Source: Heterodontus francisci
Lineage: Eukaryota
NCBI RefSeq assembly: GCF_036365525.1
Contig: NC_090399.1
Coordinates: forward strand, 66,706,862-66,770,861
DNA: 64,000 nt
Direction of reading: 5' to 3'
Each line of letters opens with the position of its first letter. Position 1 is the first letter of the stretch. Below the pieces are notes generated by a model. It made no database searches, was not told the DNA's origin, and saw nothing but the letters and a program-made list of their open reading frames with translations. Shown here piece by piece: positions 14,559 through 38,837 of the stretch. Both the position numbers and the translations under genes were made by a program.

Positions 14559-14819
14559 ACTCTCACTCTCTGCGGTATTTTCACACCTCAACGACCCCGA
14601 TTCCCGGTCTCCCGGAGTTTGTGACTGTTGGTTATGTGGATGAGCTACAGATTGATCACTATGACAGTGATCTGAAGAAGGCTGTCCCTCGGCAGAGCTG
14701 GATGGCGGAGAGTCAGGGCCTTGATTACTGGGAGGAGGAGACACAGAAACGCTGGTTTTGGGAGGAGGACGGGAAGGTCAATATTCGTAACGTCATGAAG
14801 CAGAGCAACCAGTCTACCG
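14559..14819 (+). CDS. UAA: MHC class I heavy chain, alpha1-domain exon (phase 1-1, 261 nt): (D)SHSLRYFHTSTTPIPGLPEFVTVGYVDELQIDHYDSDLKKAVPRQSWMAESQGLDYWEEETQKRWFWEEDGKVNIRNVMKQSNQST
   Basis: Acceptor ctaaccctgtctctgtgtttcag|AC at 14558/14559 and donor G|GTGAGT at 14819/14820. Class I alpha1 motifs SHSLRYF, PEFV.VGYVD, YDSD, PRQ.W and YWE, plus the N86 sequon NQS. The UAA assignment rests on remembered similarity to nurse shark Gici-UAA, not on a search. Confidence 0.96.
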
Positions 14820-14968
14820 GTGAGTGTCTCTCAGTATACCCGGGATCAGATCTGGGAATGGGGGGGGTGCGGTGTGGATGGGGATCGGGAATCAGATCTG
14901 GGAATGGGGGATGTGGATGGGGATTGAATGATCCAGTGATCTGGGATGTGAAACTCTCTCATTAACAG
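14820..14968 (+). other. Short GT-AG intron (149 bp) between the alpha1 and alpha2 exons
   Basis: Begins GTGAGT and ends ttaacAG. Splicing joins the two exons in frame (ST-G-IHT). Confidence 0.95.
14842..14925 (+). repeat. Two-copy imperfect direct repeat (~40-45 bp) in the short intron
   Basis: gggatcagatctgggaatggggg...tgtggatggggatc is followed by gggaatcagatctgggaatgggggatgtggatggggatt. Confidence 0.8.
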
Positions 14969-15241
14969 GGATACACACCTGGCAGATGATGTGCGGCTGT
15001 GAACTGCGGGATGACGGCAGCACCGAGGGGTTTACCCAGTTTGGCTGGGACGGGAAAGACCTGATCAGCTTCGACAAGGAGAATATGGTGTGGGTGACCC
15101 CGGTCAGCTGGGGAGAGATCACCAAGAACAAGTGGGATCAGAACAAGGCCAGGAACCAGTATTGGAAGGGTTACCTGGAGGGAATCTGCATAGAGTGGCT
15201 GAAGAATTACCTGAAGCTGGGAGAAAAAGAACTGAGACCCG
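14969..15241 (+). CDS. UAA: MHC class I alpha2-domain exon (phase 1-1, 273 nt): (G)IHTWQMMCGCELRDDGSTEGFTQFGWDGKDLISFDKENMVWVTPVSWGEITKNKWDQNKARNQYWKGYLEGICIEWLKNYLKLGEKELRP
   Basis: Acceptor ctctctcattaacag|GG at 14968/14969 and donor G|GTGAGT at 15241/15242. Conserved disulfide Cys pair (GC..; ICIEW) and motifs HT.Q, DG.D, TK.KW, YLEG.C.EWL..Y. In frame with the alpha1 exon. Confidence 0.97.
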
Positions 15242-15319
15242 GTGAGTGAGAGTGAGGAGAATGAGTGAGGATGAGTGAATGAGGGAAGGGACAGTGACTG
15301 AGGAGGAGACAGTGGAGGT

Positions 15320-18300
15320 GAGTGAGGGGGAACTGAAAGAGAGGGAACGAGTGAGGGGGGATCTGAGAGCGAGAGAATGAGTGGGGAAGGAACAGAGAGC
15401 AAGCGAAGGAGTGAGGGGGGACCTGAGAGTGAGTAAACGAGTGAGGGAGGAACTGACAGCGAGTGAATAAGCGAGGAGGAACTGAGAGCGAGGGAGTGAG
15501 TGAGGGGGGAACCTGAGAGCGAGGGAACAAGATAGGGAGGAACTGAGAGTGAGTGAACAAGTGAGGGGGGAACTGAGTGTGAGTGAACAAGTGAGGGAGG
15601 AACTGAGAGCGAGTAACCAAGTAAGGAGGAACTGAGAGCGAGTGAACGAGTGAGGGGGGAACTGAGAGTGAGGGAACGAGTGAGGGAGGAACTGACAGCG
15701 AGTGAACAAGTGAGGAGGAACTGAGAGCGAGTGAACGAGTGAGGGGGGAACTGACAGTGAGGGAACGAGTGAGGGAGGAACTGACAGCGAGTGAACAAGT
15801 GAGGAGGAACTGAGAGCGAGGGAGTGAGTGAGGGAGGAACTGAGAGTGAGTGAACGAGTGAGGGAGGAACTGAGAGCGAGTGAACAAGTGAGGGAGAAAC
15901 TGAGAGTGAGTGAACAAGTGAGGGAGGAACTCAGAGCGAGTGAACAAGTAAGGAGGAACTGAGAGCGAGGGAGTGAGTGAGGGGGGACCTGAGAGCGAGG
16001 GAACAAGTGAGGAGGAACTGAGAGTGAGTGAACAAGTGAGGGAGGAACTGAGAGCGAGTGAACAAGTAAGGAGGAACTGAGATCGAGTGAACGAGTAAGG
16101 GAGGAACTGAGCGCGAGGGAGTGAGTGAGGGGGGACCTGAGAGCGAGGGAACAAGTGAGGAGGAACTGAGAGTGAGTGAACGAGTGAGGGAGGAACTGAG
16201 AGCGAGTGAACGAGTGAGGGAGGAACTGAGGGCGAGGGAACAAGTGAGGAGGAACTGAGAGTGAGTGAACGAGTGAGGGAGGAACTGACAGCGAGTGAAC
16301 AAGTGAGGAGGATCAGAGAGCGAGTGAACGAGTGAACGAGTGAGGGGGGACCTAAGAGTGAGGGAGGAACTGAGAGTGAGTGAACAAGTGAGGGGGACCT
16401 GAGAGCGAGGGAACAAGTGAGGAGGAACTGAAAGCGAGGGAACGAGTGAGGGAGGAACTGAGAGCGAGTGAACCAGTGAGGAGGAACTGAGAGTGAGTGA
16501 ACGAGTGAGGGAGGAACTGAGAGCGAGTGAACAAGTGAGGAGGAACTGAGAGTGAGTGAACGAGTGAGGGAGGAACTGAGAGCGAGTGAACGAGTGAGGG
16601 GGGAACTGAGAGTGAGGGAACGAGTGAGGGCGGAACTGAGAGCGAGTGATCGAGTGAGGGGGGAACTGAGTGAGGGAACGAGTGAGGGAGGAACTGAGAG
16701 CGATTGAACGAGTGTGGGGGGAACTGAGAGTGAGTGAACGAGTGAGGGGGGGCACTGAGAGTGAGGGAACGAGTGATGAAGGAACTGAGAGCGAGTGAAC
16801 GTGTGAGGGGGGAACTGAGAGTGAGTGAACGAGTGAGGGGGGAACTGAGAGTGAGGGAACGTGTGAGGGAGGAACTGAGAGCGAGTGAACGAGTGAGGGG
16901 GGAACTGAGAGTGAGAGAATGAGGAAGGGGGAACTGAGAGTGAGGGATCAAGTGAGGGGGGAACTGAGAGTCAGGGAACGAGTGAGGGAGGAACTGAGAG
17001 CATGTGAAGGGGGGAACTGAGAGTGAGTGAACGAGTGAGGGGGGAACTGAGAGTGAGGGAACGAGTGAGGGAGGAACTGAGAGCGAGTGAACGAGTGTGG
17101 GGGGAACTGAGAGCGAGGGAACGAGTGTGGGGGGAACTGAGAGCGAGTGAACGAGTGAGGGAGGAACTGAGAGCGAGTGAACGAGTGAGGGGGGAACTGA
17201 GAGTGAGGGAACGAGTGAGGGAGGAACTGAGAGCGAGTGAACGAGTGAGGGGGGAACTGAGTGAGGCAACGAGTGAGGGAGGAACTGAAAGCGAGTGACC
17301 GAGTGTGGGGGGCACTGAGAGTGAGGGAATGAGTGAGGGAGGAACTGAGAGTGAGCGAACGAGTGAGGGGAAAACTGAGAGTGAGTGAACGAGTGAGGGG
17401 GGAACTGAGAGTGAGCGAACGAGGAAGGGGAGAACTGAGAGTGAGGGAACGAGTGAGGGGGGAACTGAGAGTGAGTAAACGAGTGAGGGGGGAACTGAGA
17501 GTAAGTAAATGAGTGAGGGGGAAATGAGAGTGGGAGAACGAGTGAGGGGGGAACTGAGAGCAAGTGAGGTGGGAACTGAGAGTGAGTGAACGAGTGAGGG
17601 AGGAATTGAGTGAGAGCGAATGGTTGAGGGAGGAACTGAGAGAGAGCGAACGAGTGAGGGGGGGAACTGAGAGTGAGGGAACGAGTGAGGGAGGAACTGA
17701 GAGCAAGTGAACGAGCGAGGGGGGAACTGAGAGTGAGGGAACAAGTGAGGGGGGAACTGGGAGTGCGTGAACGAGTGAGGGGGGAACTGGGAGTGAGTGA
17801 ACGAGTGAGGGGGGAACTGAGAGTGAGTGAACGAGTGAGGGGGGAACTGAGAGAAAGGGAATGAGTGAGGGAGGAATTGAGAGTGAGTGAACGAGTGAGG
17901 GGGGAACTGAGAGTGAGTGAACGAGTGAGGGGGGAACTGAGAGTGAGTGAACAAGTGAGGGGGGAACTGAGAGCGATTGAACGAGTGAGGGGGGAACTGA
18001 GAGTGCGCGAAAGAGTGAGGGGGGAACTGAGAGTGAGCGAACGAGTGAAGGTGGAACTGAGAGTGAGTGAACCAGTGAGGGGGGAACTGAGAGTGATTGA
18101 CGAGTGAGGGGGGAACTGAGAGAGAGGGAACGAGTGAGGGGGGAACTGAGAGCGAGTGAACGAGTGAGGGGGGAACTGAGAGCGAGGGAGTGAGTGAGGG
18201 AGGAACTGAGAGTGAGTGAACGAGTGAGGGAGGAACTGAGAGCGAGTGAACAAGTGAGGGAGAAACTGAGAGTGAGTGAACAAGTGAGGGAGGAACTCAG

Positions 18301-21300
18301 AGCGAGTGAACAAGTAAGGAGGAACTGAGAGCGAGGGAGTGAGTGAGGGGGGACCTGAGAGCGAGGGAACAAGTGAGGAGGAACTGAGAGTGAGTGAACA
18401 AGTGAGGGAGGAACTGAGAGCGAGTGAACAAGTAAGGAGGAACTGAGATCGAGTGAACGAGTAAGGGAGGAACTGAGCGCGAGGGAGTGAGTGAGGGGGG
18501 ACCTGAGAGCGAGGGAACAAGTGAGGAGGAACTGAGAGTGAGTGAACGAGTGAGGGAGGAACTGAGAGCGAGTGAACGAGTGAGGGAGGAACTGAGGGCG
18601 AGGGAACAAGTGAGGAGGAACTGAGAGTGAGTGAACGAGTGAGGGAGGAACTGACAGCGAGTGAACAAGTGAGGAGGATCAGAGAGCGAGTGAACGAGTG
18701 AACGAGTGAGGGGGGACCTAAGAGTGAGGGAGGAACTGAGAGTGAGTGAACAAGTGAGGGGGACCTGAGAGCGAGGGAACAAGTGAGGAGGAACTGAGAG
18801 TGAGTGAACGAGTGAGGGAGGAACTGAGAGCGAGTGAACAAGTGAGGAGGAACTGAGAGTGAGTGAACGAGTGAGGGAGGAACTGAGAGCGAGTGAACGA
18901 GTGAGGGGGGAACTGAGAGTGAGGGAACGAGTGAGGGCGGAACTGAGAGCGAGTGATCGAGTGAGGGGGGAACTGAGTGAGGGAACGAGTGAGGGAGGAA
19001 CTGAGAGCGATTGAACGAGTGTGGGGGGAACTGAGAGTGAGTGAACGAGTGAGGGGGGGCATTGAGAGTGAGGGAACGAGTGATGAAGGAACTGAGAGCG
19101 AGTGAACGTGTGAGGGGGGAACTGAGAGTGAGTGAACGAGTGAGGGGGGAACTGAGAGTGAGGGAACGTGTGAGGGAGGAACTGAGAGCGAGTGAACGAG
19201 TGAGGGGGGAACTGAGAGTGAGAGAATGAGGAAGGGGGAACTGAGAGTGAGGGATCAAGTGAGGGGGGAACTGAGAGTCAGGGAACGAGTGAGGGGGGAA
19301 CTGAGAGCATGTGAAGGGGGGAACTGAGAGTGAGTGAACGAGTGAGGGGGGAACTGAGAGTGAGGGAACGAGTGAGGGAGGAACTGAGAGCGAGTGAACG
19401 AGTGTGGGGGGAACTGAGAGCGAGGGAACGAGTGTGGGGGGAACTGAGAGCGAGTGAACGAGTGAGGGAGGAACTGAGAGCGAGTGAACGAGTGAGGGGG
19501 GAACTGAGAGTGAGGGAACGAGTGAGGGAGGAACTGAGAGCGAGTGAACGAGTGAGGGGGGAACTGAGTGAGGCAACGAGTGAGGGAGGAACTGAAAGCG
19601 AGTGACCGAGTGTGGGGGGCACTGAGAGTGAGGGAATGAGTGAGGGAGGAACTGAGAGTGAGCGAACGAGTGAGGGGAAAACTGAGAGTGAGTGAACGAG
19701 TGAGGGGGGAACTGAGAGTGAGCGAACGAGGAAGGGGAGAACTGAGAGTGAGGGAACGAGTGAGGGGGGAACTGAGAGTGAGTAAACGAGTGAGGGGGGA
19801 ACTGAGAGTGAGGGAATGAGTGAGGGAGGAACTGAGAGTGAGCGAACGAGTGAGGGGAAAACTGAGAGTGAGTGAACGAGTGAGGGGGGAACTGAGAGTG
19901 AGCGAACGAGGAAGGGGAGAACTGAGAGTGAGGGAACGAGTGAGGGGGGAACTGAGAGTGAGTAAACGAGTGAGGGGGGAACTGAGAGTAAGTAAATGAG
20001 TGAGGGGGAAATGAGAGTGGGAGAACGAGTGAGGGGGGAACTGAGAGCAAGTGAGGTGGGAACTGAGAGTGAGTGAACGAGTGAGGGAGGAATTGAGTGA
20101 GAGCGAATGGTTGAGGGAGGAACTGAGAGAGAGCGAACGAGTGAGGGGGGGAACTGAGAGTGAGGGAACGAGTGAGGGAGGAACTGAGAGCAAGTGAACG
20201 AGCGAGGGGGGAACTGAGAGTGAGGGAACAAGTGAGGGGGGAACTGGGAGTGCGTGAACGAGTGAGGGGGGAACTGGGAGTGAGTGAACGAGTGAGGGGG
20301 GAACTGAGAGTGAGTGAACGAGTGAGGGGGGAACTGAGAGAAAGGGAATGAGTGAGGGAGGAATTGAGAGTGAGTGAACGAGTGAGGGGGGAACTGAGAG
20401 TGAGTGAACGAGTGAGGGGGGAACTGAGAGTGAGTGAACAAGTGAGGGGGGAACTGAGAGCGATTGAACGAGTGAGGGGGGAACTGAGAGTACGCGAAAG
20501 AGTGAGGGGGGAACTGAGAGTGAGCGAACGAGTGAAGGTGGAACTGAGAGTGAGTGAACCAGTGAGGGGGGAACTGAGAGTGATTGACGAGTGAGGGGGG
20601 AACTGAGAGAGAGGGAACGAGTGAGGGGGGAACTGAGAGCGAGTGAACGAGTGAGGGGGGAACTGAGAGCGAGGGAACGAGTTAGGGGGAACTGAGAGTG
20701 AGGGAACGAGTGAGGGGGGAACTCAGAGTGAGGGAACGAGTGAGGTGGGAACTGAGAGTGAGGGTACGAGTGAGGGGGAAACTGAGAGCGAGGGAACGAG
20801 TGTAGGTGGAACTGAGAGTGAGTGAACGAGTGAGGGGGGAACTGAGAGCGAGAGAGGGGGGAACTGAGAGAGAGGGAAGGAGTGAGGGTGGAACTGGGAG
20901 TGAGAGAACGAGTGAGGGTGGAACTGAGAGAAAGACAACGAGTGAGGGGGAAACTGAGCGTGAGCGAGTGGAGGGGGAACTCAGAGTGAGCGAGTGAGGG
21001 GGTACAGAGCATGAGCGAGTGGGGGGGGGAACTGATTGTGAGCGAGTGGGGGGGGGAACTGAGAGTGAGAGAGTGGCGGGGGAACTGAGAGTGAGCGAGT
21101 GAGGGGGGAACTGAGAGTGAGAGAGTGGCGGGGGAACTGAGAGTCAGTGAGTGGGGGGGAACTGAGAGTGAGCGAGTGGGGGGGAACTGAGAGTGAGCGA
21201 GTGGGGGGGAACTGAGAGTGAGCGAGTGGAGGGGGAACAGATCGTGAGCGAGTGGAGGGGGAACTGATCGTGAGCGAGTGGGGGGGAACTGAGAGTCAGT

Positions 21301-24300
21301 GAGTGGGGGGAAACAGAGATTGACTGAGTGAGGGGGAACTGAGAGTGAGGGAACGAGTGAGGGGGGAACTGAGAGTGAGTGAACGAGTGTGGGGGGAACT
21401 GAGAGTGAGTGAACGAGTGAGGAAGGAACTGAGAGCGAGTGAACGAGTGAGGGGGGAACTGAGAGCAAGGGAACGAGTGAGGGAGGAACTGAAAGCGAGT
21501 GACCGAGTGTGGGGGGCACTGAGAGTGAGGGAATGAGTGAGGGAGGAACTGAGAGTGAGCGAACGAGTGAGGGGAAAACTGAGAGTGAGTGAACGAGTGA
21601 GGGGGGAACTGAGAGTGAGCGAACGAGGAAGGGGAGAACTGAGAGTGAGGGAACGAGTGAGGGGGGAACTGAGAGTGAGTAAACGAGTGAGGGGGGAACT
21701 GAGAGTGAGGGAATGAGTGAGGGAGGAACTGAGAGTGAGCGAACGAGTGAGGGGAAAACTGAGAGTGAGTGAACGAGTGAGGGGGGAACTGAGAGTGAGC
21801 GAACGAGGAAGGGGAGAACTGAGAGTGAGGGAACGAGTGAGGGGGGAACTGAGAGTGAGTAAACGAGTGAGGGGGGAACTGAGAGTAAGTAAATGAGTGA
21901 GGGGGAAATGAGAGTGGGAGAACGAGTGAGGGGGGAACTGAGAGCAAGTGAGGTGGGAACTGAGAGTGAGTGAACGAGTGAGGGAGGAATTGAGTGAGAG
22001 CGAATGGTTGAGGGAGGAACTGAGAGAGAGCGAACGAGTGAGGGGGGGAACTGAGAGTGAGGGAACGAGTGAGGGAGGAACTGAGAGCAAGTGAACGAGC
22101 GAGGGGGGAACTGAGAGTGAGGGAACAAGTGAGGGGGGAACTGGGAGTGCGTGAACGAGTGAGGGGGGAACTGGGAGTGAGTGAACGAGTGAGGGGGGAA
22201 CTGAGAGTGAGTGAACGAGTGAGGGGGGAACTGAGAGAAAGGGAATGAGTGAGGGAGGAATTGAGAGTGAGTGAACGAGTGAGGGGGGAACTGAGAGTGA
22301 GTGAACGAGTGAGGGGGGAACTGAGAGTGAGTGAACAAGTGAGGGGGGAACTGAGAGCGATTGAACGAGTGAGGGGGGAACTGAGAGTACGCGAAAGAGT
22401 GAGGGGGGAACTGAGAGTGAGCGAACGAGTGAAGGTGGAACTGAGAGTGAGTGAACCAGTGAGGGGGGAACTGAGAGTGATTGACGAGTGAGGGGGGAAC
22501 TGAGAGAGAGGGAACGAGTGAGGGGGGAACTGAGAGCGAGTGAACGAGTGAGGGGGGAACTGAGAGCGAGGGAACGAGTTAGGGGGAACTGAGAGTGAGG
22601 GAACGAGTGAGGGGGGAACTCAGAGTGAGGGAACGAGTGAGAGGGGAAGTGAGAGTGATTGAACGAGTGAGGTGGGAACTGAGAGTGAGGGTACGAGTGA
22701 GGGGGAAACTGAGAGCGAGGGAACGAGTGTAGGTGGAACTGAGAGTGAGTGAACGAGTGAGGGGGGAACTGAGAGCGAGAGAGGGGGGAACTGAGAGAGA
22801 GGGAAGGAGTGAGGGTGGAACTGGGAGTGAGAGAACGAGTGAGGGTGGAACTGAGAGAAAGACAACGAGTGAGGGGGAAACTGAGCGTGAGCGAGTGGAG
22901 GGGGAACTCAGAGTGAGCGAGTGAGGGGGTACAGAGCATGAGCGAGTGGGGGGGGGAACTGATTGTGAGCGAGTGGGGGGGGGAACTGAGAGTGAGAGAG
23001 TGGCGGGGGAACTGAGAGTGAGCGAGTGAGGGGGGAACTGAGAGTGAGAGAGTGGCGGGGGAACTGAGAGTCAGTGAGTGGGGGGGAACTGAGAGTGAGC
23101 GAGTGGGGGGGAACTGAGAGTGAGCGAGTGGGGGGGAACTGAGAGTGAGCGAGTGGAGGGGGAACAGATCGTGAGCGAGTGGAGGGGGAACTGATCGTGA
23201 GCGAGTGGGGGGGAACTGAGAGTCAGTGAGTGGGGGGAAACAGAGATTGACTGAGTGAGGGGGAACTGAGAGTGAGGGAACGAGTGAGGGGGGAACTGAG
23301 AGTGAGTGAACGAGTGTGGGGGGAACTGAGAGTGAGTGAACGAGTGAGGAAGGAACTGAGAGCGAGTGAACGAGTGAGGGGGGAACTGAGAGCAAGGGAA
23401 CGAGTGAGGGAGGAACTGAAAGCGAGTGAAAGAGTGAGGGGGGAACTGAGAGTGAGTGAACGAGTGAGGGGGGAACTGAGAGTGAGCAAGTGAGGGGGAA
23501 CTGATCGTGAGCGAGTGGGGGGGGGGAACTGAGAGTCAGTGAGAGGGGGGAAACTGAGATTGACTGAGTGAGGGGGAACTGAGAGTGAGGGAACGAGTGA
23601 GGGGGGAACTGAGAGTGAGTGAAAGAGTGTGGGGGGAACTGAGAGTGAGTGAACGAGTGAGGGAGGAACTGAGAGCGAGTGAACGAGTGAGGGGGGAACT
23701 GAGAGTGAGGGAACGAGTGAGGGATGAACTGAAAGCGAGTGAAAGAGTGAGGGGGGAACTGAGAGTGAGTGAACGAGTGAGGGGGGAACTGAGAGTGAGT
23801 GAACGAGTGAGGGAGGAACTTAGAGTGAGAGAACGAGTGAGGGGGGAACTGAGAGTGAGGGAACGAGTGAGGGGGGAAACTGAGAGTGAGTGAACCAGCG
23901 ACGGGAGAGCTGAAAGTGAGTGAACGAGTGAGGGGGGAACTGAAAGTGAGGGAACGAGTGAGGGAGGAACTGAGAGCGAGTGAACGAGTGAGGGGGAAAC
24001 TGAGAGCGAGTGAACGAGTGAGGGGGGAACTGAGAATGAGCGAAAGAGTGAGGGAGGAACTGAGAGTGAGTGAACGAGTGAGGGGGGAACTGAGTGAGCG
24101 AACGAGGAAGGGAAGAACTGAGAGTGAGGGAATGTGGGAGGGTGGATCTGAGAGTGAGTGAACGAGTGAGGGAGGAACTGAGAGTGAGTAAACGAGTGAG
24201 GGGGGAAATGAGAGTGGGAGAACGAGTGAGGGGGGAACTGAGAGTGAGTGAACGAGTGAGGGAGGAACTTAGAGCGAGAGAACGAGTGAGGGGGGACTGA

Positions 24301-27300
24301 GAGCGAGGGAACGAGTGAGGGGGGAACGGAGAGTGAGTGAACGAGTGAGGAACGAACTTAGAGTGAGTGAACGAGTGAGGGGGGAACTGAGAGTGAGGGA
24401 ACGAGTGAGGGCGGAACTGAGAGCGAGTGATCGAGTGAGGGGGGAACTGAGTGAGGGAACGAGTGAGGGAGGAACTGAGAGCGATTGAACGAGTGTGGGG
24501 GGAACTGAGAGTGAGTGAACGAGTGAGGGGGGGCACTGAGAGTGAGTGAACGAGTGAGGGGGGAACTGAGAGTGAGGGAACGTGTGAGGGAGGAACTGAG
24601 AGCGAGTGAACGAGTGAGGGGGGAACTGAGAGTGAGAGAATGAGGAAGGGGGAACTGAGAGTGAGGGAACGAGTGTGGGGGGAACTGAGAGCAAGTGAAG
24701 GGGGGAACTGAGAGTGAGTGAACGAGTGAGGGGGGAACTGAGAGCGAGGGAACGAGTGAGGGAGGAACTGAGAGCGAGTGAACGAGTGAGGGGAGAACTG
24801 AGAGTGAGGGAACGAGTGAGGGAGGAACTGAGAGTGAGGGAACGAGTGAGGGCGGAACTGAGAGCGAGTGATCGAGTGAGGGGGGAACTGAGTGAGGGAA
24901 CGAGTGAGGGAGGAACTGAGAGCGATTGAACGAGTGTGGGGGGAACTGAGAGTGAGTGAACGAGTGAGGGGGGGCACTGAGAGTGAGTGAACGAGTGAGG
25001 GGGGAACTGAGAGTGAGGGAACGTGTGAGGGAGGAACTGAGAGCGAGTGAACGAGTGAGGGGGGAACTGAGAGTGAGAGAATGAGGAAGGGGGAACTGAG
25101 AGTGAGGGAACGAGTGTGGGGGGAACTGAGAGCAAGTGAAGGGGGGAACTGAGAGTGAGTGAACGAGTGAGGGGGGAACTGAGAGTGAGGGAACGAGTGA
25201 GGGAGGAACTGAGAGCGAGTGAACGAGTGAGGGGGGAACTGAGAGTGAGTGAACGAGTGAGGGAGGAACTGAGAGCGAGTGAACGAGTGAGGGGAGAACT
25301 GAGAGTGAGGGAACGAGTGAGGGAGGAACTGAGAGCGAGTGAACGAGTGTGGGGGCACTGAGAGTGAGGGAATGAGTGAGGGAGGAACTGAGAGTGAGTG
25401 AACGAGTGAGGGGGGAACTGAGAGCGAGGGAACGAGTGTGGGGGGAACTGAGAGTGAGTGAACGAGTGAGGGAGGAACTGAGAGCGAGTGAACGAGTGAG
25501 GGAGGAACTGAGAGCGAGTGAACGAGTGAGGGGGGAACTGAGAGTGAGGCAACGAGTGAGGGAGGAACTGAAAGCGAGTGACCGAGTGTGGGGGGCACTG
25601 AGAGTGAGGGAATGAGTGAGGGAGGAACTGAGAGTGAGCGAACGAGTGAGGGGAAAACTGAGAGTGAGTGAACGAGTGAGGGGGGAACTGAGAGTGAGCG
25701 AACGAGTGAGGGAGGAACTGAAAGCGAGTGAAAGAGTGAGGGGGGAACTGAGAGTGAGCAAGTGAGGGGGAACTGATCGTGAGCGAGTGGGGGGGGGGGA
25801 ACTGAGAGTCAGTGAGAGGGGGGAAACTGAGATTGACTGAGTGAGGGGGAACTAAGAGTGAGGGAACGAGTGAGGCGGGAACTGAGAGTCAGTGAAAGAG
25901 TGTGGGGGGAACTGAGAGTGAGTGAACGAGTGAGGGAGGAACTGAGAGCGAGTGAACGAGTGAGGGAGGAACTTAGAGTGAGAGAACGAGTGAGGGGGGA
26001 ACTGAGAGCGAGGGAACGAGTGAGGGGGGAAACTGACAGTGAGTGAACCAGCGACGGGAGAGCTGAAAGTGAGTGAACGAGTGAGGAGGGAACTGAAAGT
26101 GAGGGAACGAGTGAGGGAGGAACTGAGAGCGAGTGAACGAGTGAGGGGGGAACTGAGAGCGAGTGAACGAGTGAGGGGGGAACTGAGAATGAGCGAAAGA
26201 GTGAGGGAGGAACTGAGAGTGAGTGAACGAGTGAGGGGGGAACTGAGAGTGAGCGAACGAGTGAAGGGGCAACTGAGAGTGAGTGAACCAGTGAGGGGGA
26301 AACTGAGAGTGATTGAGCGAGTGAGGGGGGAACTGAGAGAGAGGGAACGAGTGAGGGGGGAACTGAGAGCGAGGGAACGAGTGAGGGGGGAACTGAGAGC
26401 GAGTGAACGAGTGAGGGGGGAACTGAGAGTGAGGGAACGTGGGAGGGAGGAACAGTGAGTGAATGAACGAGTGTGGGGGGAACTGAGATTGAGTGAACGA
26501 GTGAGGGAGGAACTGAGAGTGAGCGAACGAGTGAGGGGGGAAGTGAGAGTGAGTGAACGAGTGAGGGGGGAACTGAGAGTGAGTGAACGAGTGAGGGGGG
26601 AACTGGGAGTGCGTGAACGAGTGAGGAGGGAACTGGGAGTGAGTGAACGAGTGAGGGGGGAACTGAGAGCGAGGGAACGAGTGAGGGAGGAACTGAAAGC
26701 GAGTGACCGAGTGTGGGGGGCACTGAGAGTGAGGGAATGAGTGAGGGAGGAACTGAGAGTGAGCGAACGAGTGAGGGGAAAACTGAGAGTGAGTGAACGA
26801 GTGAGGAGGGAACTGAGAGTGAGCGAACGAGGAAGGGGAGAACTGAGAGTGAGGGAACGAGTGAGGGGGGAACTGAGAGTGAGTAAACGAGTGAGGGGGG
26901 AACTGAGAGTGAGCGAACGAGTGAGGGGAAAACTGAGAGTGAGTGAACGAGTGAGGAGGGAACTGAGAGTGAGTGAACGAGTGAGGGGGGAACTGAGAGT
27001 GAGGGAACGAGTGAGGGGGGAACTGGGAGTGCGTGAACGAGTGAGGAGGGAACTGGGAGTGAGTGAACGAGTGAGGGGGGAACTGAGAGCGAGGGAACGA
27101 GTGAGGGAGGAACTGAAAGCGAGTGACCGAGTGTGGGGGGCACTGAGAGTGAGGGAATGAGTGAGGGAGGAACTGAGAGTGAGCGAACGAGTGAGGGGAA
27201 AACTGAGAGTGAGTGAACGAGTGAGGAGGGAACTGAGAGTGAGCGAACGAGGAAGGGGAGAACTGAGAGTGAGGGAACGAGTGAGGGGGGAACTGAGAGT

Positions 27301-30300
27301 GAGTAAACGAGTGAGGGGGGAACTGAGAGTGAGTAAACGAGTGAGGGGGAAATGAGAGTGGGAGAACGAGTGAGGGGGGAACTGAGAGCAAGTGAGGGGG
27401 GAACTGAGAGTGAGTGAACGAGTGAGGGAGGAATTGAGTGAGAGCGAACGGTTGAGGGAGGAACTGAGAGAGAGCGAACGAGTGAGGGGGGAACTGAGAG
27501 TGAGGGAACGAGTGAGGGAGGAACTGAGAGCAAGTGAACGAGTGAGGGGGATCTGAGAGTGAGGGAACGAGTGAGGGGGGAACTGGGAGTGCGTGAACGA
27601 GTGAGGGGGGAACTGGGAGTGAGTGAACGAGTGAGGGGGGAACTGAGAGTGAGTGAACGAGTGAGGGGGGAACTGAGAGCAAGGGAATGAGTGAGGGAGG
27701 AATTGAGAGTGAGTGAACGAGTGAGGGGGGAACTGAGAGTGAGTGAACGAGTGAGGGGGGAACTGAGAGCGATTGAACGAGTGAGGGGGGAACTGAGAGT
27801 GAGCGAAAGAGTGAGGGGGGAACTGATAGTGAGCGAACGAGTGAAGGTGGAACTGAGAGTGAGTGAACCAGTGAGGGGGGAACTGAGAGTGATTGAGCGA
27901 GTGAGGGGGGAACTGAGAGAGAGGGAACGAGTGAGGGGGGAACTGAGAGCGAGTGAACGAGTGAGGGGGGAACTGAGAGCGAGGGAACGAGTGAGGGGGA
28001 ACTGAGAGTGAGGGAACGAGTGAGGGGGGAACTCAGAGTGAGGGAACGAGTGAGAGGGGAACTGAGAGTGATTGAACGAGTGAGGTGGGAACTGAGAGTG
28101 AGGGTACGAGTGAGGGGGGAACTGAGAGCGAGGGAACGAGTGTAGGTGGAACTGAGAGTGAGTGAACGAGTGAGGGGGGAACTGAGAGCGAGAGAGGGGG
28201 GAACTGAGAGAGAGGGAAGGAGTGAGGGTGGAACTCGGAGTGAGAGAACGAGTGAGGGTGGAACTGAGAGAAAGACAACGAGTGAGGGGGAAACTGAGCG
28301 TGAGCGAGTGGAGGGGGAACTCAGAGTGAGCGAGTGAGGGGGAACTGAGCATGAGCGAGTGGGGGGGGAACTGATTGTGAGCGAGTGGGGGGGGAACTGA
28401 GAGTGAGAGAGTGGCGGGGGAACTGAGAGTGAGCGAGTGGGGGGGGAACTGAGAGTGAGAGAGTGGCGGGGGAACTGAGAGTGAGCGAGTGGGGGGGGAA
28501 CTGAGAGTGAGAGAGTGGCGGGGGAACTGAGAGTCAGTGAGTGGGGGGAACTGAGAGTGAGCGAGTGGGGGGGAACTGAGAGTGAGCGAGTGGAGGGGGA
28601 ACTGATCGTGAGCGAGTGGGGGGGGAACTGAGAGTGAAAGAGTGGCGGGGAACTGAGAGTGAGCGAGTGGGGGGGAACTGAGAGTGAGGGAACGAGTGAG
28701 GGAGGAACTGAGAGTGAGGGAGGAACTGAGAGCGAGTGAACGAGTGAGGGGGGAACTGAGTGAGGCAACGAGTGAGGGAGGAACTGAAAGCGAGTGACCG
28801 AGTGTGGGGGGCACTGAGAGTGAGGGAATGAGTGAGGGAGGAACTGAGAGTGAGCGAACGAGTGAGGGGAAAACTGAGAGTGAGTGAACGAGTGAGGGGG
28901 GAACTGAGAGTGAGCGAACGAGGAAGGGGAGAACTGAGAGTGAGGGCACGAGTGAGGGGGGAACTGAGAGTGAGTAAACGAGTGAGGGGGAAATGAGAGT
29001 GGGAGAACGAGTGAGGGGGGAACTGAGAGCAAGTGAGGGGGGAACTGAGAGTGAGTGAACGAGTGAGGGAGGAATTGAGTGAGAGCGAACGGTTGAGGGA
29101 GGAACTGAGAGAGAGCGAACGAGTGAGGGGGGAACTGAGAGTGAGGGAACGAGTGAGGGAGGAACTGAGAGCAAGTGAACGAGTGAGGGGGGAACTGAGA
29201 GTGAGGGAACGAGTGAGGGGGGAACTGAGAGTGAGTGAACGAGTGAGGGGGAAACTGAGAGCGAGAGAGGGAGGAACTGAGAGAGAGGGAAGGAGTGAGG
29301 GTGGAACTGAGAGAAAGACAACGAGTGAGGGGGAAACTGAGCGTGAGCGAGTGGAAGGGGAACTCAGAGTGAGCGAGTGAGGGGGAACTGAGCATGAGCG
29401 AGTGGGGGGGGGGAACTGATTGTGAGCGAGTGGGGGGGGAACTGAGAGTGAGAGAGTGGCGGGGGAACTGAGAGTGAGCGAGTGGGGGGGGGAACTGAGA
29501 GTGAGAGAGTGGCGGGGAACTGAGAGTCAGTGAGTGGGGGGAACTGAGAGTGAGCGAGTGGGGGGGAACTGAGAGTGAGCGAGTGGGGGGGAACTGAGAG
29601 TGAGCGAGTGGAGGGGGAACTGATCGTGAGCGAGTGGGGGGGGGAACTGAGAGTGAAAGAGTGGCGGGGAACTGAGAGTGAGCGAGTGGGCGGGAACTGA
29701 GAGTGAGCGAGTGGAGGGGGAACTGATCGTGAGCGAGTGGGGGGGGGGGAACTGAGAGTCAGTGAGAGGGGGGAAACTGAGATTGACTGAGTGAGGGGGA
29801 ACTAAGAGTGAGGGAACGAGTGAGGCGGGAACTGAGAGTGAGTGAACGAGTGTGGGGGGAACTGAGAGTGAGTGAACGAGTGAGGGAGGAACTGAGAGCG
29901 AGTGAACGAGTGAGGGGATAACTGAGAGCGAAGGAACGAGTGAGGGGGGAACTGAAAGCGAGTGAAAGAGTGAGGGGGGAACTGAGAGTGAGTGAACGAG
30001 TGAGGAGGGAACTGAGAGTGAGCAAGTGACGGGGAACTGATCGTGAGCGAGTGGGGGGGGGCGAACTGAGAGTCAGTGAGAGGGGGGAAACTGAGATTGA
30101 CTGAGTGAGGGGGAACTAAGAGTGAGGGAACGAGTGAGGCGGGAACTGAGAGTCAGTGAAAGAGTGTGGGGGGAACTGAGAGTGAGTGAACGAGTGAGGG
30201 AGGAACTGAGAGCGAGTGAACGAGTGAGGGGGGTACTGAGAGTGAGGGAACGAGTGAGGGATGAACTGAAAGCGAGTGAAAGACTGAGGGGGGAACTGAG

Positions 30301-33300
30301 AGTGAGTGAACGAGTGAGGGGGGAACTGAGAGTGAGTGAACGAGTGAGGGAGGAACCTAGAGTGAGAGAACGAGTGAGGGGGGAACTGAGAGCGAGGGAA
30401 CGAGTGAGGGGGGAAACTGAGAGTGAGTGAACCAGCGACGGGAGAGCTGAAAGTGAGTGAACGAGTGAGGAGGGAACTGAAAGTGAGGGAACGCGTGAGG
30501 GAGGAACTGAGAGCGAGTGAACGAGTGAGGGGGGAACTGAGAGCGAGTGAACGAGTGAGGGGGGAACTGAGAATGAGCGAAAGAGTGAGGGAGGAACTGA
30601 GAGTGAGTGAACGAGTGAGGGGGGAACTGAAAGCGAGTGACCGAGTGTGGGGGGCACTGAGAGTGAGGGAATGAGTGAGGGAGGAACTGAGAGTGAGCGA
30701 ACGAGTGAGGGGAAAACTGAGAGTGAGTGAACGAGTGAGGAGGGAACTGAGAGTGAGCGAACGAGGAAGGGGAGAACTGAGAGTGAGGGAACGAGTGAGG
30801 GGGGAACTGAGAGTGAGTAAACGAGTGAGGGGGGAACTGAGAGTGAGTAAACGAGTGAGGGGGAAATGAGAGTGGGAGAACGAGTGAGGGGGGAACTGAG
30901 AGCAAGTGAGGGGGGAACTGAGAGTGAGTGAACGAGTGAGGGAGGAATTGAGTGAGAGCGAACGGTTGAGGGAGGAACTGAGAGAGAGCGAACGAGTGAG
31001 GGGGGAACTGAGAGTGAGGGAACGAGTGAGGGAGGAACTGAGAGCAAGTGAACGAGTGAGGGGGATCTGAGAGTGAGGGAACGAGTGAGGGGGGAACTGG
31101 GAGTGCGTGAACGAGTGAGGGGGGAACTGGGAGTGAGTGAACGAGTGAGGGGGGAACTGAGAGTGAGTGAACGAGTGAGGGGGGAACTGAGAGCAAGGGA
31201 ATGAGTGAGGGAGGAATTGAGAGTGAGTGAACGAGTGAGGGGGGAACTGAGAGTGAGTGAACGAGTGAGGGGGGAACTGAGAGCGATTGAACGAGTGAGG
31301 GGGGAACTGAGAGTGAGCGAAAGAGTGAGGGGGGAACTGAGAGTGAGCGAACGAGTGAAGGTGGAACTGAGAGTGAGTGAACCAGTGAGGGGGGAACTGA
31401 GAGTGATTGAGCGAGTGAGGGGGGAACTGAGAGAGAGGGAACGAGTGAGGGGGGAACTGAGAGCGAGTGAACGAGTGAGGGGGGAACTGAGAGCGAGGGA
31501 ACGAGTGAGGGGGAACTGAGAGTGAGGGAACGAGTGAGGGGGGAACTCAGAGTGAGGGAACGAGTGAGAGGGGAACTGAGAGTGATTGAACGAGTGAGGT
31601 GGGAACTGAGAGTGAGGGTACGAGTGAGGGGGGAACTGAGAGCGAGGGAACGAGTGTAGGTGGAACTGAGAGTGAGTGAACGAGTGAGGGGGGAACTGAG
31701 AGCGAGAGAGGGGGGAACTGAGAGAGAGGGAAGGAGTGAGGGTGGAACTCGGAGTGAGAGAACGAGTGAGGGTGGAACTGAGAGAAAGACAACGAGTGAG
31801 GGGGAAACTGAGCGTGAGCGAGTGGAGGGGGAACTCAGAGTGAGCGAGTGAGGGGGAACTGAGCATGAGCGAGTGGGGGGGGAACTGATTGTGAGCGAGT
31901 GGGGGGGGAACTGAGAGTGAGAGAGTGGCGGGGGAACTGAGAGTGAGCGAGTGGGGGGGGAACTGAGAGTGAGAGAGTGGCGGGGGAACTGAGAGTGAGC
32001 GAGTGGGGGGGGAACTGAGAGTGAGAGAGTGGCGGGGGAACTGAGAGTCAGTGAGTGGGGGGAACTGAGAGTGAGCGAGTGGGGGGGAACTGAGAGTGAG
32101 CGAGTGGAGGGGGAACTGATCGTGAGCGAGTGGGGGGGGAACTGAGAGTGAAAGAGTGGCGGGGAACTGAGAGTGAGCGAGTGGGGGGGAACTGAGAGTG
32201 AGGGAACGAGTGAGAGAGGAACTGAGAGTGAGGGAGGAACTGAGAGCGAGTGAACGAGTGAGGGGGGAACTGAGTGAGGCAACGAGTGAGGGAGGAACTG
32301 AAAGCGAGTGACCGAGTGTGGGGGGCACTGAGAGTGAGGGAATGAGTGAGGGAGGAACTGAGAGTGAGCGAACGAGTGAGGGGAAAACTGAGAGTGAGTG
32401 AACGAGTGAGGGGGGAACTGAGAGTGAGCGAACGAGGAAGGGGAGAACTGAGAGTGAGGGCACAAGTGAGGGGGGAACTGAGAGTGAGTAAACGAGTGAG
32501 GGGGAAATGAGAGTGGGAGAACGAGTGAGGGGGGAACTGAGAGCAAGTGAGGGGGGAACTGAGAGTGAGTGAACGAGTGAGGGAGGAATTGAGTGAGAGC
32601 GAACGGTTGAGGGAGGAACTGAGAGAGAGCGAACGAGTGAGGGGGGAACTGAGAGTGAGGGAACGAGTGAGGGAGGAACTGAGAGCAAGTGAACGAGTGA
32701 GGGGGGAACTGAGAGTGAGGGAACGAGTGAGGGGGGAACTGAGAGTGAGTGAACGAGTGAGGGGGAAACTGAGAGCGAGAGAGGGAGGAACTGAGAGAGA
32801 GGGAAGGAGTGAGGGTGGAACTGAGAGAAAGACAACGAGTGAGGGGGAAACTGAGCGTGAGCGAGTGGAAGGGGAACTCAGAGTGAGCGAGTGAGGGGGA
32901 ACTGAGCATGAGCGAGTGGGGGGGGGGAACTGATTGTGAGCGAGTGGGGGGGGAACTGAGAGTGAGAGAGTGGCGGGGGAACTGAGAGTGAGCGAGTGGG
33001 GGGGGGGAACTGAGAGTGAGAGAGTGGCGGGGAACTGAGAGTCAGTGAGTGGGGGGAACTGAGAGTGAGCGAGTGGGGGGGAACTGAGAGTGAGCGAGTG
33101 GGGGGGAACTGAGAGTGAGCGAGTGGAGGGGGAACTGATCGTGAGCGAGTGGGGGGGGGGAACTGAGAGTGAAAGAGTGGCGGGGAACTGAGAGTGAGCG
33201 AGTGGGGGGGAACTGAGAGTGAGCGAGTGGAGGGGGAACTGATCGTGAGCGAGTGGGGGGGGGGGAACTGAGAGTCAGTGAGAGGGGGGAAACTGAGATT

Positions 33301-36300
33301 GACTGAGTGAGGGGGAACTAAGAGTGAGGGAACGAGTGAGGCGGGAACTGAGAGTGAGTGAACGAGTGTGGGGGGAACTGAGAGTGAGTGAACGAGTGAG
33401 GGAGGAACTGAGAGCGAGTGAACGAGTGAGGGGATAACTGAGAGCGAAGGAACGAGTGAGGGGGGAACTGAAAGCGAGTGAAAGAGTGAGGGGGGAACTG
33501 AGAGTGAGTGAACGAGTGAGGAGGGAACTGAGAGTCAGTGAAAGAGTGTGGGGGGAACTGAGAGTGAGTGAACGAGTGAGGGAGGAACTGAGAGCGAGTG
33601 AACGAGTGAGGGGGGTACTGAGAGTGAGGGAACGAGTGAGGGATGAACTGAAAGCGAGTGAAAGACTGAGGGGGGAACTGAGAGTGAGTGAACGAGTGAG
33701 GGGGGAACTGAGAGTCAGTGAAAGAGTGTGGGGGGAACTGAGAGTGAGTGAACGAGTGAGGGAGGAACTGAGAGCGAGTGAACGAGTGAGGGGGGTACTG
33801 AGAGTGAGGGAACGAGTGAGGGATGAACTGAAAGCGAGTGAAAGACTGAGGGGGGAACTGAGAGTGAGTGAACGAGTGAGGGGGGAACTGAGAGTGAGTG
33901 AACGAGTGAGGGAGGAACCTAGAGTGAGAGAACGAGTGAGGGGGGAACTGAGAGCGAGGGAACGAGTGAGGGGGGAAACTGAGAGTGAGTGAACCAGCGA
34001 CGGGAGAGCTGAAAGTGAGTGAACGAGTGAGGAGGGAACTGAAAGTGAGGGAACGCGTGAGGGAGGAACTGAGAGCGAGTGAACGAGTGAGGGGGGAACT
34101 GAGAGCGAGTGAACGAGTGAGGGGGGAACTGAGAATGAGCGAAAGAGTGAGGGAGGAACTGAGAGTGAGTGAACGAGTGAGGGGGGAACTGAGAGTGAGC
34201 GAACGAGTGAAGGGGCAACTGAGAGAGAGGGAACGAGTGAGGGGGGAACTGAGAGCGAGGGAACGAGTGAGGTGGGAACTGAGAGCGAGTGAACAAGTGA
34301 GGGGGGAACTGAGAGTGAGGGAACGTGGGAGGGAGGAACAGTGAGTGAATGAACGAGTGTGGGGGGAACTGAGATTGAGTGAACGAGTGAGGGAGGAACT
34401 GAGAGTGAGCGAACGAGTGAGGGGGGAAGTGAGAGTGAGTGAACGAGTGAGGGGGGAACTGAGAGTGAGGGAACGAGTGAGGGGGGAACTGGGAGTGCGT
34501 GAACGAGTGAGGAGGGAACTGGGAGTGAGTGAACGAGTGAGGGGGGAACTGAGAGTGAGGGAACGAGTGAGGGAGGAACTGAGAGCGAGTGAACAAGTGA
34601 GGGGGGAACTGAGTGAGGCAACGAGTGAGGGAGGAACTGAAAGCGAGTGACCGAGTGTGGGGGGCACTGAGAGTGAGGGAATGAGTGAGGGAGGAACTGA
34701 GAGTGACCGAACGAGTGAGGGGAAAACTGAGAGTGAGTGAACGAGTGAGGGGGGAACTGAGAGTGAGCGAACGAGGAAGGGGAGAACTGAGAGTGAGGGA
34801 ACGAGTGAGAGGGAACTGAGAGTGAGTAAACGAGTGAGGGGGGAACTGAGAGTGAGTAAACGAGTGAGGGGGAAATGAGAGTGGTAGAACGAGTGAGGGG
34901 GGAACTGAGAGCAAGTGAGGGGGGAACTGAGAGTGAGTGAACGAGTGAGGGAGGAATTGAGTGAGAGCGAACGGTTGAGGGAGGAACTGAGAGAGAGCGA
35001 ACGAGTGAGGGGGGACCTGAGAGTGAGGGAACGAGTGAGGGAGGAACTGAGAGCAAGTGAACGAGTGAGGGGGGAACTGAGAGTGAGGGAACGAGTGAGG
35101 GGGGAACTGGGAGTGCGTGAACGAGTGAGGGGGGAACTGGGAGTGAGTGAACGAGTGAGGGGGGAACTGAGAGTGAGTGAACGAGTGAGGGGGGAACTGA
35201 GAGCAAGGGAATGAGTGAGGGGGGAACTGAGAGTGAGTGAACGAGTGAGGGGGGAACTGAGAGTGAGTGAACGAGTGAGGGGGGAACTGAGAGCGATTGA
35301 ACGAGTGAGGGGGGAACTGAGAGTGAGTGAACGAGTGAGGGGGGGAACTGAGAGTGAGCGAACGAGTGAAGGTGGAACTGAGAGTGAGTGAACCAGTGAG
35401 GGGGTTCTGAGAGTGATTGAGCGAGTGAGGGGGGAACTGAGAGAGAGGGAACGAGTGAGGGGGGAACTGAGAGCGTGTGAACGAGTGAGGGGGGAACTGA
35501 GAGCGAGGGAACGAGTGAGGGGGAACTGAGAGTGAGGGAACGAGTGAGGGGGGAACTCAGAGTGAGGGAACGAGTGAGAGGGGAACTGAGAGTGATTGAA
35601 CGAGTGAGGTGGGAACTGAGAGTGAGGGTACGAGTGAGGGGGGAACTGAGAGGCAACGAGTGAGGGGGGAACTGAGAGCAAGGGAACGAGTGAGGGGGGA
35701 AATGAGAGTGAGGGGGGAACTACGAGTGTGCGAACGAGTGAGGGGGGAACTGAGAGTGAGTGAACGAATGAGGGGGGAGCTGATAGTGAGCGAATTACTG
35801 AGGGGGGAATTGAGAGCGAAGGAACGAGTGAGGGGGGAATTGAGAGAGAGGGAACGAGTGAGAGGGGGACTGAGAGCGAGGGAGCGAGTGAGGGGGGAAC
35901 TGAGAGTGAGCGAACGAGTGAGGGGGGAACTGAGAGTGAGTGAATGTGTGTGGGGGGAACTGAGAGCGAGCGAACGAGTGAGAGGGGAACTGAAAGTGAG
36001 GGAACGAGTGAGGGGGGAACTGAGAATGTGCGAATTACTGAGGGGGGAATTGAGAGAGAAGGAACGAGTGAGGGGGGAACTGAGAGCGAGGGAGCGAGTG
36101 AGGGGGGGAACTGAGAATGAGCGAATTACTGAGGGGGGAATTGAGAGAGAAGGAACGAGTGAGGGGGGAACTGAGAGCGAGTGAGCGAGTGAGGAGGGAA
36201 CTGAGAGTGAGCGAACGAGACGGGGGGACTGAGAGTGAACGAACGAGTGAGGGGGGACCTGATAGTGAGTGAATGAGTGAGGGGGGAACTGAGAGAGAAG

Positions 36301-38465
36301 GAACGAGTGAGGGGGGAATTGATAGAGAGGCAACGAATGAGAAGGGAACTGAGAGCAAGGGAGCGAGTGAGGGGGGAACTGAGAGCGAGGGTACGAGTGA
36401 GGGGGGAACTGAGAGCGAGGGAACGAGTGAGGGCGGAGCTGAGAGTGAACGAATGAGAGGGGGGGGACTGAGAGTGAGCGAATCAGTGAGGGTGAAACTG
36501 AGAGCGAGGGAACGAGTGAGGAGGGAACTCAGAGTGAGGGAACGAGTGAGGGGGAACTGAGAGTGAGCAAGTGACTGAGGGGGGAACTGAGAGTGAGCGA
36601 GTGAGTAAGGGGGGAACTGAGAGTGAGCGAACGAGTGAGGGGGGAACTGAGAGCGAGGGTACGAGTGAGGGGGGAACTGAGAGCGAGGGTACGAGTGAGA
36701 GCGGAGCTGAGAGTGAGCGAACGAGTGAGGGGGGAACTGAGAGTGAGCGAACCAGCGAGGGTGAAACTGAGAGCGAGGGATCGAGTGAGGAGGGAACTCA
36801 GAGTGAGGGAACGAGTGAGGGGGGAACTGAGAGCGAGGGAACGAGTGTAGGCGGAACTGAGAGTGAGTGAACGAGTGAGGGGGGAACTGAGAGCGAGTGA
36901 CGGGGGAACTGAGAGCGAGGGAACGAGTGTAGGCGGAACTGAGAGTGAGTGAACGAGTGAGGGGGGAACTGAGAGAGACTGAGTGAGGGGGAACTGAGAG
37001 TGTGCGAGTGAGTGAGGGGGGAACTGAGAGTGAGCGAGTGAGTGATGGGGGAACTGAGATTGAGCGAGTGGAGGGGGAACTGAGAGTGAGCGATTGGAGG
37101 GGGAACTGATTGAGCGAGTGAGGGGGGAACTGAGAGCGGGCGAACGAGTGAGGGAGGAACTGAGAGCGAGAGAACGATTGAGGGGGGAACTGAGAGTGAG
37201 TGAACGAGTGACGGGGGAACTGAGAGCGAGCGAACGAGTGTGGGGGGAACTGACAGCGAGCGAATGAGTGAGGGGGCAACTGAGAGTGAGCGAATTACTG
37301 AGGGGGGAATTGAGAGAGAAGGAACGAGTGAGGGGGGAATTGAGAGAGAGGGAACGAGTGAGAGGGGGAACTGAGAGCGAGGAAGCGAGTGAGAGGGGAA
37401 CTGAGAGTGAGCGAATTACTGAGGGGGGAATTGAGAGAGAAGGAACGAGTGTGGGGGGAATTGAGAGAGAGGGAACGAGTGAGAGGGGGAACTGAGAGCG
37501 AGGGAGCGAGTGAGAGGGGAACTGAGAGTGAGCGAATTACTGAGGGGGGAATTGAGAGAGAAGGAACGAGTGAGGGGGGGAACTGAGAGCGAGGGAGCGA
37601 GTGAGAGGGGAACTGAGAGTGAGCGAATTACTGAGGGGGGAATTGAGAGAGAAGGAACGAGTGAGGGGGGGAACTGAGAGCGAGGGAGCGAGTGAGAGGG
37701 GAAATGAGAGTGAGCGAATTACTGAGGGGGGAATTGAGAGAGAGGGAACGAGTGAGAGGGGAACTGAGAGCGAGGGAGAGAGTGAGAGGGGAACTGAGAG
37801 CGAGGGAACGAGTGAGGGGGGAACTGAGAGAGAGGGAATGAGTGAGGGGGGAACTGAGAGAGAGGGAACGAATGAGGGGGTTACTGAGAGAGAGGGAACG
37901 AGTGAGGGGGGAGCTGAGAGCGAGTAAACGAGTGAGGGGGGAACTGAGAGAGAGGGAATGAGTGAGGGGGGAACTGAGAGAGAGGGAACGAATGAGGGGG
38001 GTACTGAGAGCGAGTAAATGAGTGAGGGGGAACTGAGAGAGAGGGAATGAGTGAGGGGGGAACTGAGAGAGAGGGAACGAATGAGGGGGTTACTGAGAGA
38101 GAGGGAACGAATGAGGGGGGAACTGAGAGCGAGTGAGGGGGGAACTAAGAGCGAGAGAACGAGTGAGAGGGGAACTGAGAGCGAGTGAACCAGTGAGGGG
38201 GGAACTGAGAGAGAGGGAACGAATGAGGGGGGTACTGAGAGCAAGACAACGAGTGAGGGGGAACTGAGAGACAGTGAACGAGTGAGGGGGGAAATGAGAG
38301 TGAGCGAGTGGAGGGGTAACTGAGAGTGAGCGAGTGGAGGGGGCACTGAGTGAGCGAGTGAGTGAGGTGGGAACTGAGAGTGAGTGAGTGAGGGGGGAAC
38401 TGGAGAGTGAGCGAGTGGAGGGGGAACTGAGAGTGAGCGAGTGAGTGATTGAGGGGGGTAACTGA
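15320..38465 (+). repeat. Purine-rich ~30-bp minisatellite (consensus GAACTGAGAGTGAGTGAACGAGTGAGGGGG, roughly 800 units) filling the 23,313-bp alpha2-alpha3 intron (15242-38554)
   Basis: 30-nt periodicity is visible as vertically aligned columns (e.g. 17761-18000, 26401-27340). There are 24-28-bp deletion variants, and the array degenerates at both ends. Boundaries are approximate. Confidence 0.97.
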
Positions 38466-38530: not shown

Positions 38531-38554
38531 CTAACTCCTCTCTCTCTGTCTCAG
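38531..38554 (+). promoter_or_regulatory. 3' splice site of the alpha3 exon (branch point, polypyrimidine tract, CAG)
   Basis: CTAACtcctctctctctgtctCAG lies in the short unique stretch that ends the purine-rich array. Confidence 0.9.
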
Positions 38555-38818
38555 TTGCTCCCTCCGTGTCCTTTACCCGTCGCGGTGATAGTAACCGACT
38601 GTCCTGTGTCACCACTGGGTTTTACCCTCAAGCCATCGAGGTGACTCTGCGCAGAGATGGGGTTTCCCTCGATGAATCTCTCTCCGACGGGATCCTTCCC
38701 AATCACGATGGCACCTACCAGACCCACAAATGGACTGATGTTGATCCCGAGGACCAGGCCAAGTTCTCCTGTGAGGTGGATCACAGCGGGCTGAAGGAGA
38801 AGATGGTGGTGTTTTATG
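38555..38818 (+). CDS. UAA: MHC class I alpha3 (Ig C1-set) exon (phase 1-1, 264 nt): (V)APSVSFTRRGDSNRLSCVTTGFYPQAIEVTLRRDGVSLDESLSDGILPNHDGTYQTHKWTDVDPEDQAKFSCEVDHSGLKEKMVVFY
   Basis: Branch point CTAAC (38531-38535), pyrimidine tract and cag| at 38554; donor G|GTAAGT at 38818/38819. Ig-C1 motifs LSC..TGFYP, PNHDGTYQ and FSC.V.H.GL. In frame with the alpha2 exon. Confidence 0.96.
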
Positions 38819-38837
38819 GTAAGTCTTTCTCCCACAG

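Follow-up and report, generated by a model that had tools for sequence, protein, structure and literature searches.

A 30-bp minisatellite in intron 3 of a horn shark MHC class I gene probably descends from an old exon-intron junction

[quoted passage not shown] Where did such an array come from, and how is the gene spliced past it? The window analyzed here, a 64,000-nucleotide (nt) stretch (C29:66706862-66770861) of the 6.0-Gb genome, contains three exons of this one gene, whereas the leader and transmembrane exons lie outside it. The introns of the gene measure 21.0, 0.15, 23.3, and 51.3 kb, and the long ones are packed with tandem repeats. The alpha2 exon has an identical counterpart in a 343-amino-acid database protein annotated as class I of H. 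francisci, and the closest solved structure is the nurse shark class I molecule 6LUP (alpha2 match, E 9e-41). We consider it likely that the array is a junction-derived minisatellite, which would have grown as a near-neutral passenger from one old duplication, with splicing kept by use of the first donor.

An earlier reading of this DNA, made from its letters (the sequence-only reading), had described a 30-mer repeated hundreds of times and collinear at 25 positions with the junction between the alpha2 exon and intron 3. Both statements hold: about 791 copies were counted, junction and consensus read as quoted there, and the gapped alignment of junction and unit reproduces the 25 matched bases; when the unit was put through 20,000 dinucleotide shuffles, 17 of them reached this score (p = 0.00085). 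The intron half of this alignment overlaps the decayed edge that precedes the array, the regular array beginning ~80 nt past the donor. On the exon side only, 9 bases match exactly, and 481 of 20,000 shuffles are as good (p = 0.024); of 9,925 further 13-nt windows taken from class I coding regions, none shares 9 bases with the unit. Taken singly, the match at the window locus is suggestive, and the paralogues decide.

The sequence-only reading had proposed a comparison with paralogues having a short intron 3, and two such genes copy the junction exactly. Intron 3 spans 541 nt in paralogue 42.45M and 637 nt in paralogue 42.84M; in both, the exon already contains the beginning of the array, whose units reiterate 11 exon bases plus the donor unchanged (p = 0.003). 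At least seven anchored units are present in 16 of the 21 class I paralogues, with a span of 0 to 2,470 units in this one assembly. For the near-identical gene group at 57-62 Mb, beyond three genes just one of each was examined for units; 42.30M was left out (no alpha2 in its stretch), 54.55M was left out of the U1-energy and site-count comparisons, and the U1 energies of 60.11M, 58.18M, and 61.39M rest on older intron-end calls. Genome-wide, the exact 30-mer has 152 matches, 44 in intron 3 of the window gene and 108 in intron 3 of a sister gene. Searches with up to 2 mismatches, on which genome confinement rests, gave 2,014 matches in 6.0 Gb, 342 and 1,672 in the same two introns and none elsewhere, and two paralogue-type patterns fell directly behind class I alpha2 exons in 39 of 39 and 27 of 27 matches. 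The repeat is locus-specific and is not a dispersed satellite; the possibility raised at the outset that the same 30-mer is common at unrelated loci is not borne out by any of the 2,014 matches. Two paralogues with open alpha2 and alpha3 frames, 67.04M and 32.21M, have 2 and 0 anchored units. Intron 3 of 67.04M (L068:663-5324) contains a T-run-headed insertion, similar to a retrotransposon tail, that starts 8 nt past the donor and displaces nearly the whole array, with two units left at the 3' end.

The correspondence between unit and junction depends on the register of the alignment. The gapped register of the sequence-only reading, in which CCCG was lost and AC gained, was reproduced and then dropped in favor of the ungapped one, which is better supported by comparison of the repeat units. 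Without gaps, the window unit is identical to the 42.84M unit at 25 of 30 positions and to its own junction at 20 of 30, and five edge units of the window array retain the ancestral GT at unit positions 18-19. These identities suggest that the unit, with its 13 exon and 17 intron bases, was likely inherited from an older class I gene and not copied from the present junction. The claim that the array arose from the junction is thus retained for an exon-intron junction as such, but not for the present junction of the window gene. Since many sharks keep ELRP or a near variant at this exon end, a sign of constraint on the protein, the copying appears to have run from exon to intron. In the ungapped register, the inherited donor reads TGA/GTGAAC or worse (the slash marks the splice position). 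G/GTRAG is retained there in 0 of 621 anchored units of the window intron and 0 of 2,470 of the sister; it is intact in 5 of 12 units in 42.84M and in 110 of 456 in 46.13M (15.7 kb), and the GT is altered in all 22 units of 32.76M. The A/GTGAGT and A/GTGAGG hexamers reported earlier are indeed frequent (187 and 656 in intron 3) and are weak, secondary sites; the AGA/GTGAGT sites likely occupy the place of the exon's last codon.

A plausible course of events starts with one short duplication across the alpha2/intron 3 junction, likely in an older shark class I gene, after which the first copy would have remained the working exon end and later copies would have fallen into the intron. The repeat is present in the paralogues, which may have inherited or exchanged it. 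In the ancestor of the window gene and its sister, a founder unit whose donor was degraded (G to A at both -1 and +5, T to C at +6, and frequent loss of +2) would have been amplified to 23 and 84.5 kb, probably through unequal exchange, as suggested by the kilobase-scale internal duplications. Exact 120-mers reappear in the window array at offsets of 1.9-3.5 kb, which points to recent block duplications within it. The window intron 3 contains 1 canonical short-loop G-quadruplex motif. The sister gene has an intron 3 of 84.5 kb with about 2,770 copies of the unit, a length taken from one assembly with a 200-N gap inside this array. Throughout, the array would have expanded as a passenger on which selection hardly acted.

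Three features probably keep splicing correct, in that the most upstream donor would win, no acceptor is available for a pseudo-exon, and any extension hits a stop at once: the authentic GT lies at 15242, and an in-frame TGA at 15247-15249 halts any exon extension. A pyrimidine tract plus AG occurs once in the 23.3-kb window intron and once in the 84.5-kb sister intron; with a single such site in an intron of 80% purine, no pseudo-exon is definable. Duplex energies computed with the genome's own U1 5' end, a crude measure in which G-U pairs are overrated, are -10.2 kcal/mol for the authentic donor, -5.1 to -6.5 for the bulk of the decoys, and -1.9 for the inherited position, and those predicted for the alpha1 and alpha3 donors are -11.3 and -9.1. 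Among the 1,682 GT sites of intron 3, 2 equal or exceed the authentic donor, the first at 15318, 76 nt in. Predicted donor strength would favor the true site in the window gene, but it cannot be a general rule, because in paralogue 46.13M, whose alpha2 and alpha3 frames are open, the gene's own donor is A/GTGAGT and precedes 147 G/GTRAGT sites. Likewise, the proposal that G at -1 marks the true donor survives in part. It separates nearly all decoys (A at -1 in 1,013 of the 1,049 GTRAG sites of intron 3, G in 2), but it is not needed, given the stronger predicted site 76 nt in and the 46.13M donor. One contig, which matches the window gene identically along 226 nt, runs from alpha1 into alpha2, and one contig from a related organism, in which rare forms are not visible, exits alpha2 at 15241 and continues into the alpha3 start. 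The database protein identical to the window gene reads ELRP-VAPS across the exon join. In human F7, the available text of PMC1557585 describes experiments in which splicing takes the most upstream donor even when copies downstream of it are stronger.

Several points weigh against this explanation. First-site donor choice, as far as the same text goes, was demonstrated in mammalian cells and not in sharks (PMC1557585). The splice contigs are guessed to be RNA, and rare variants drop out of them, so low-level use of pseudo-donors is invisible; their coverage excludes 15247-15300 and thus gives no evidence against such use. The U1 energies are crude, and the array lengths come from one assembly. 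Two anchored units or fewer are found in 5 of the 21 paralogues, and neutrality is inferred from an absence of need. Furthermore, the repeat core resembles an ELRV exon end, and ELRP is commoner among shark proteins, so that either an ELRV or an ELRP gene may have seeded the repeat.

Could the shared repeat also have provided homology for exchange of alpha1-alpha2 against alpha3 between class I genes? This is compatible with a junction-derived passenger array, and we regard it as a tentative possibility. Genes of the 60.11M type are 81% identical to the window gene in alpha2 and 58% in alpha3, whereas 42.84M is 70% identical in alpha2 and 80% in alpha3. In the cross-species trees, the alpha3-type group is rejected for alpha1-alpha2 (p-AU 0.007), the horn shark grouping is rejected for alpha3 (p-AU 0.0004), and a pair of Heptranchias proteins group as sisters by alpha1-alpha2 (100/100) but have dissimilar alpha3 domains. 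The 3' ends of the introns track the alpha3 type, and the repeat fills the 5' part. The paralogue trees comprise 18 genes with both exons and the cross-species trees 27 of 47 proteins, after removal of fused, partial, and redundant entries; the evidence across species consists of protein trees, and the intron comparison concerns one species. Weighing on the other side, none of the arrays has a mapped breakpoint within it, exchange could instead take place at exon ends or through conversion of the groove exons alone, the groups were named after the alpha3 types had been seen, and in the trees many forks are open and the outgroup branches are long. The repeat is an intron 3 sequence common to the lineages and therefore could host exchanges; a fuller version, in which the minisatellite of diverged lineages served to swap alpha1-alpha2 onto different alpha3 and may also have rewritten the last alpha2 codon in one lineage, is more doubtful. 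If the repeat does drive exchange, it would explain mechanistically why domains are discordant in the oldest vertebrates that bear an MHC. At least seven near-identical class I copies (57-62 Mb on C29) and three unplaced contigs have an alpha2 like that of the window gene and a very different alpha3.

The last codon also bears on where the repeat was born. It may have arisen beside an ELRP exon and drifted, and in the ELRV paralogues it may later have overwritten the final codon, in which case the perfect match there would be secondary. Where the last codon would fall, units have GTC in genes with CCC, CAC, or CCG in the exon itself, and ELRP is widespread among sharks, both of which fit such an origin. 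Nevertheless, ELRA-type ends in other sharks offer a stepwise path to V, and birth in an ELRV lineage followed by spread fits the same pattern of units and exons; we therefore hold the ELRP birth to be rather improbable.

Selection could have shaped the arrays by purging strong pseudo-donors, so that growth to tens of kilobases was open to disarmed units alone. The absence of G/GTRAG from the inherited position in all 621 and all 2,470 anchored units of the two giant arrays would be expected under such purging, as would the altered GT in 22 of 22 units of 32.76M. Both giant arrays, however, derive from one founder and represent one event, 46.13M keeps 110 of 456 intact across 15.7 kb, and the sister array has 101 G/GTRAG sites at another unit position, so we judge this account unlikely.

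The sequence-only reading had pointed to a role for the array as a carpet of U1 sites, which would be kept because it guards a long intron against being cleaved and polyadenylated too early. That U1 suppresses polyadenylation within introns is established, and intron 3 has 45 GTRAG per kb on the sense strand. No polyadenylation signal for telescripting to suppress is evident in the 23.3-kb intron, which has 0 AATAAA, 0 ATTAAA, and 21 of the weak AGTAAA, and the sister's 84.5-kb intron has a single AATAAA. The intron owes its length to the repeat alone, and the repeat is equally dense in introns of 0.5-0.9 kb, while the 21-kb intron 1 holds 3 GTRAG and the open genes 67.04M and 32.21M have almost no units. 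Bulk sites are also predicted to pair weakly compared with the authentic donor, and the inherited donor position would be nearly dead. A U1-carpet function is therefore unsupported and very improbable. It is scarcely credible that low-complexity GA/GT-rich sequence produced the junction match by chance or that the repeat is foreign: the exon-only match at the window gene would by itself leave some room for chance, but confinement within the genome at up to 2 mismatches and the exact junction copies in paralogues argue against it.

Table 1. Features of the class I gene and its repeats, in window coordinates
Feature	Position	Strand	Remarks
137-bp array, intron 1	1..14567	+	extends about 4 kb upstream of the window
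alpha1 exon, MHC class I	14559..14819	+	
Intron 2	14820..14968	+	149 nt; contig joint skipping 149 nt, GT..AG
alpha2 exon	14969..15241	+	end = ELRP
Junction segment homologous to one repeat unit	15229..15258	+	13 exon nt + 17 intron nt (likely); 20/30 ungapped, 25 matches gapped
Authentic donor CCG/GTGAGTGA	15239..15249	+	in-register U1 duplex predicted at -10.2 kcal/mol
Strongest predicted pseudo-donor GAG/GTGAGTGA	15315..15325	+	in decayed 5' edge; -11.6 kcal/mol
30-bp minisatellite	15320..38448	+	about 791 copies, 80% purine, kilobase-scale internal duplications
An exact consensus unit of the 30-bp array	16721..16750	+	
alpha3 acceptor	38535..38554	+	sole pyrimidine tract plus AG in intron 3
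alpha3 exon	38555..38818	+	
47-bp array, intron 4 (51.3 kb total)	38837..64000	+	no visible match to either junction

Judged by its sequence, the window array can be placed among boundary-spanning minisatellites ("mirages"), a known kind, as an unusually large member: it lies head-to-tail beside an exon, its unit spans the exon-intron boundary, and it is locus-specific. The available text of PMC1557585 lists such repeats in human F7 intron 7 (a 37-bp variable number tandem repeat), CBS intron 13, 6-16 intron 2, LAMIN B2, and PDGF intron 4. As in these F7-type cases, the first shark unit spans the exon end and donor, and F7 uses the upstream donor (PMC1557585). The F7-type arrays described there have 5-26 copies with identical pseudo-donors, whereas the shark arrays have about 790 and 2,770 copies with the inherited donor degraded, and, unlike those cases, the shark repeat is common to a multigene family (PMC1557585). 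A donor reiterated unchanged, as in F7, is absent from the window array (0/621) and is found in 42.84M (5/12) and 46.13M (110/456). Amphioxus mirages are known from Adh3 and globin genes; in the portion of that paper available, the globin mirages have 3-6 units, compared with hundreds to thousands in the shark, which has a donor and an acceptor mirage in one gene (PMC3087553). The available text of a paper on elasmobranch MHC organization (PMC10751288) makes no mention of intron repeats. Tandem repeats are richer on short shark chromosomes (PMC10620051), and neither this finding nor PMC10078293, in the text available of each, bears on the origin of the array. No description of the 30-bp repeat in shark class I genes was found in the literature searched, which did not cover subscription journals and supplements. 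The new aspects are its size, its spread through the family, the additional mirage of intron 1 on the acceptor side, and the part that it may play in shuffling alpha1-alpha2 against alpha3. Published copy numbers are exceeded by about two orders of magnitude. The family forms a natural series, with intact and degraded pseudo-donors, introns of 0.5 to 84.5 kb, and true donors stronger or weaker than decoys, which could test first-site donor choice outside mammals. The arrays also explain the ~100-kb span of these class I genes and the difficulty of assembling them.

The 137-bp array of intron 1 is a second, acceptor-side mirage, which gives the window gene both a donor and an acceptor mirage. 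Each of its units combines the acceptor of alpha1 and the initial bases of that exon with a fossil stretch of alpha1 coding DNA (PEYWERQTQI); 109 copies of the acceptor's last 10 bases were found, 9 of them with nine exon bases exact. Compared with the sister's alpha1 exon, the fossil piece scores above all 3,000 shuffles, and it is nearer to that exon (score 49) than to the window gene's own (29). The sister has 14.6 copies of the unit and the window gene about 136. The donor array has no acceptors and the acceptor array has almost no donors, as would be expected if selection tolerates such repeats.

The other arrays at the locus include the 47-bp repeat, which also follows alpha3 in the sister and in 67.04M (12.7 copies), and a 72-bp array that follows the transmembrane exon (L083); by eye, neither matches a junction. 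Upstream of the window (L078), a 40-bp array precedes the leader, another 40-bp array lies in intron 1, and a 64-bp array directly after the leader donor resembles the donor with its GT changed. Among the paralogues, 66.83M has an in-frame stop within alpha2, and 46.56M and 54.55M appear broken. The alpha1 helix of the window gene (window 14700-14770) reads ETQKRWFWEEDGK, which is unusual compared with QTQIALGWEQGGK in the sister gene and may indicate an atypical groove. In several paralogues, an acceptor-region motif (TCTGATTGGCTG-like) recurs through intron 2 up to the splice site, and intron 1 of other paralogues likewise repeats up to the splice site with a different unit.

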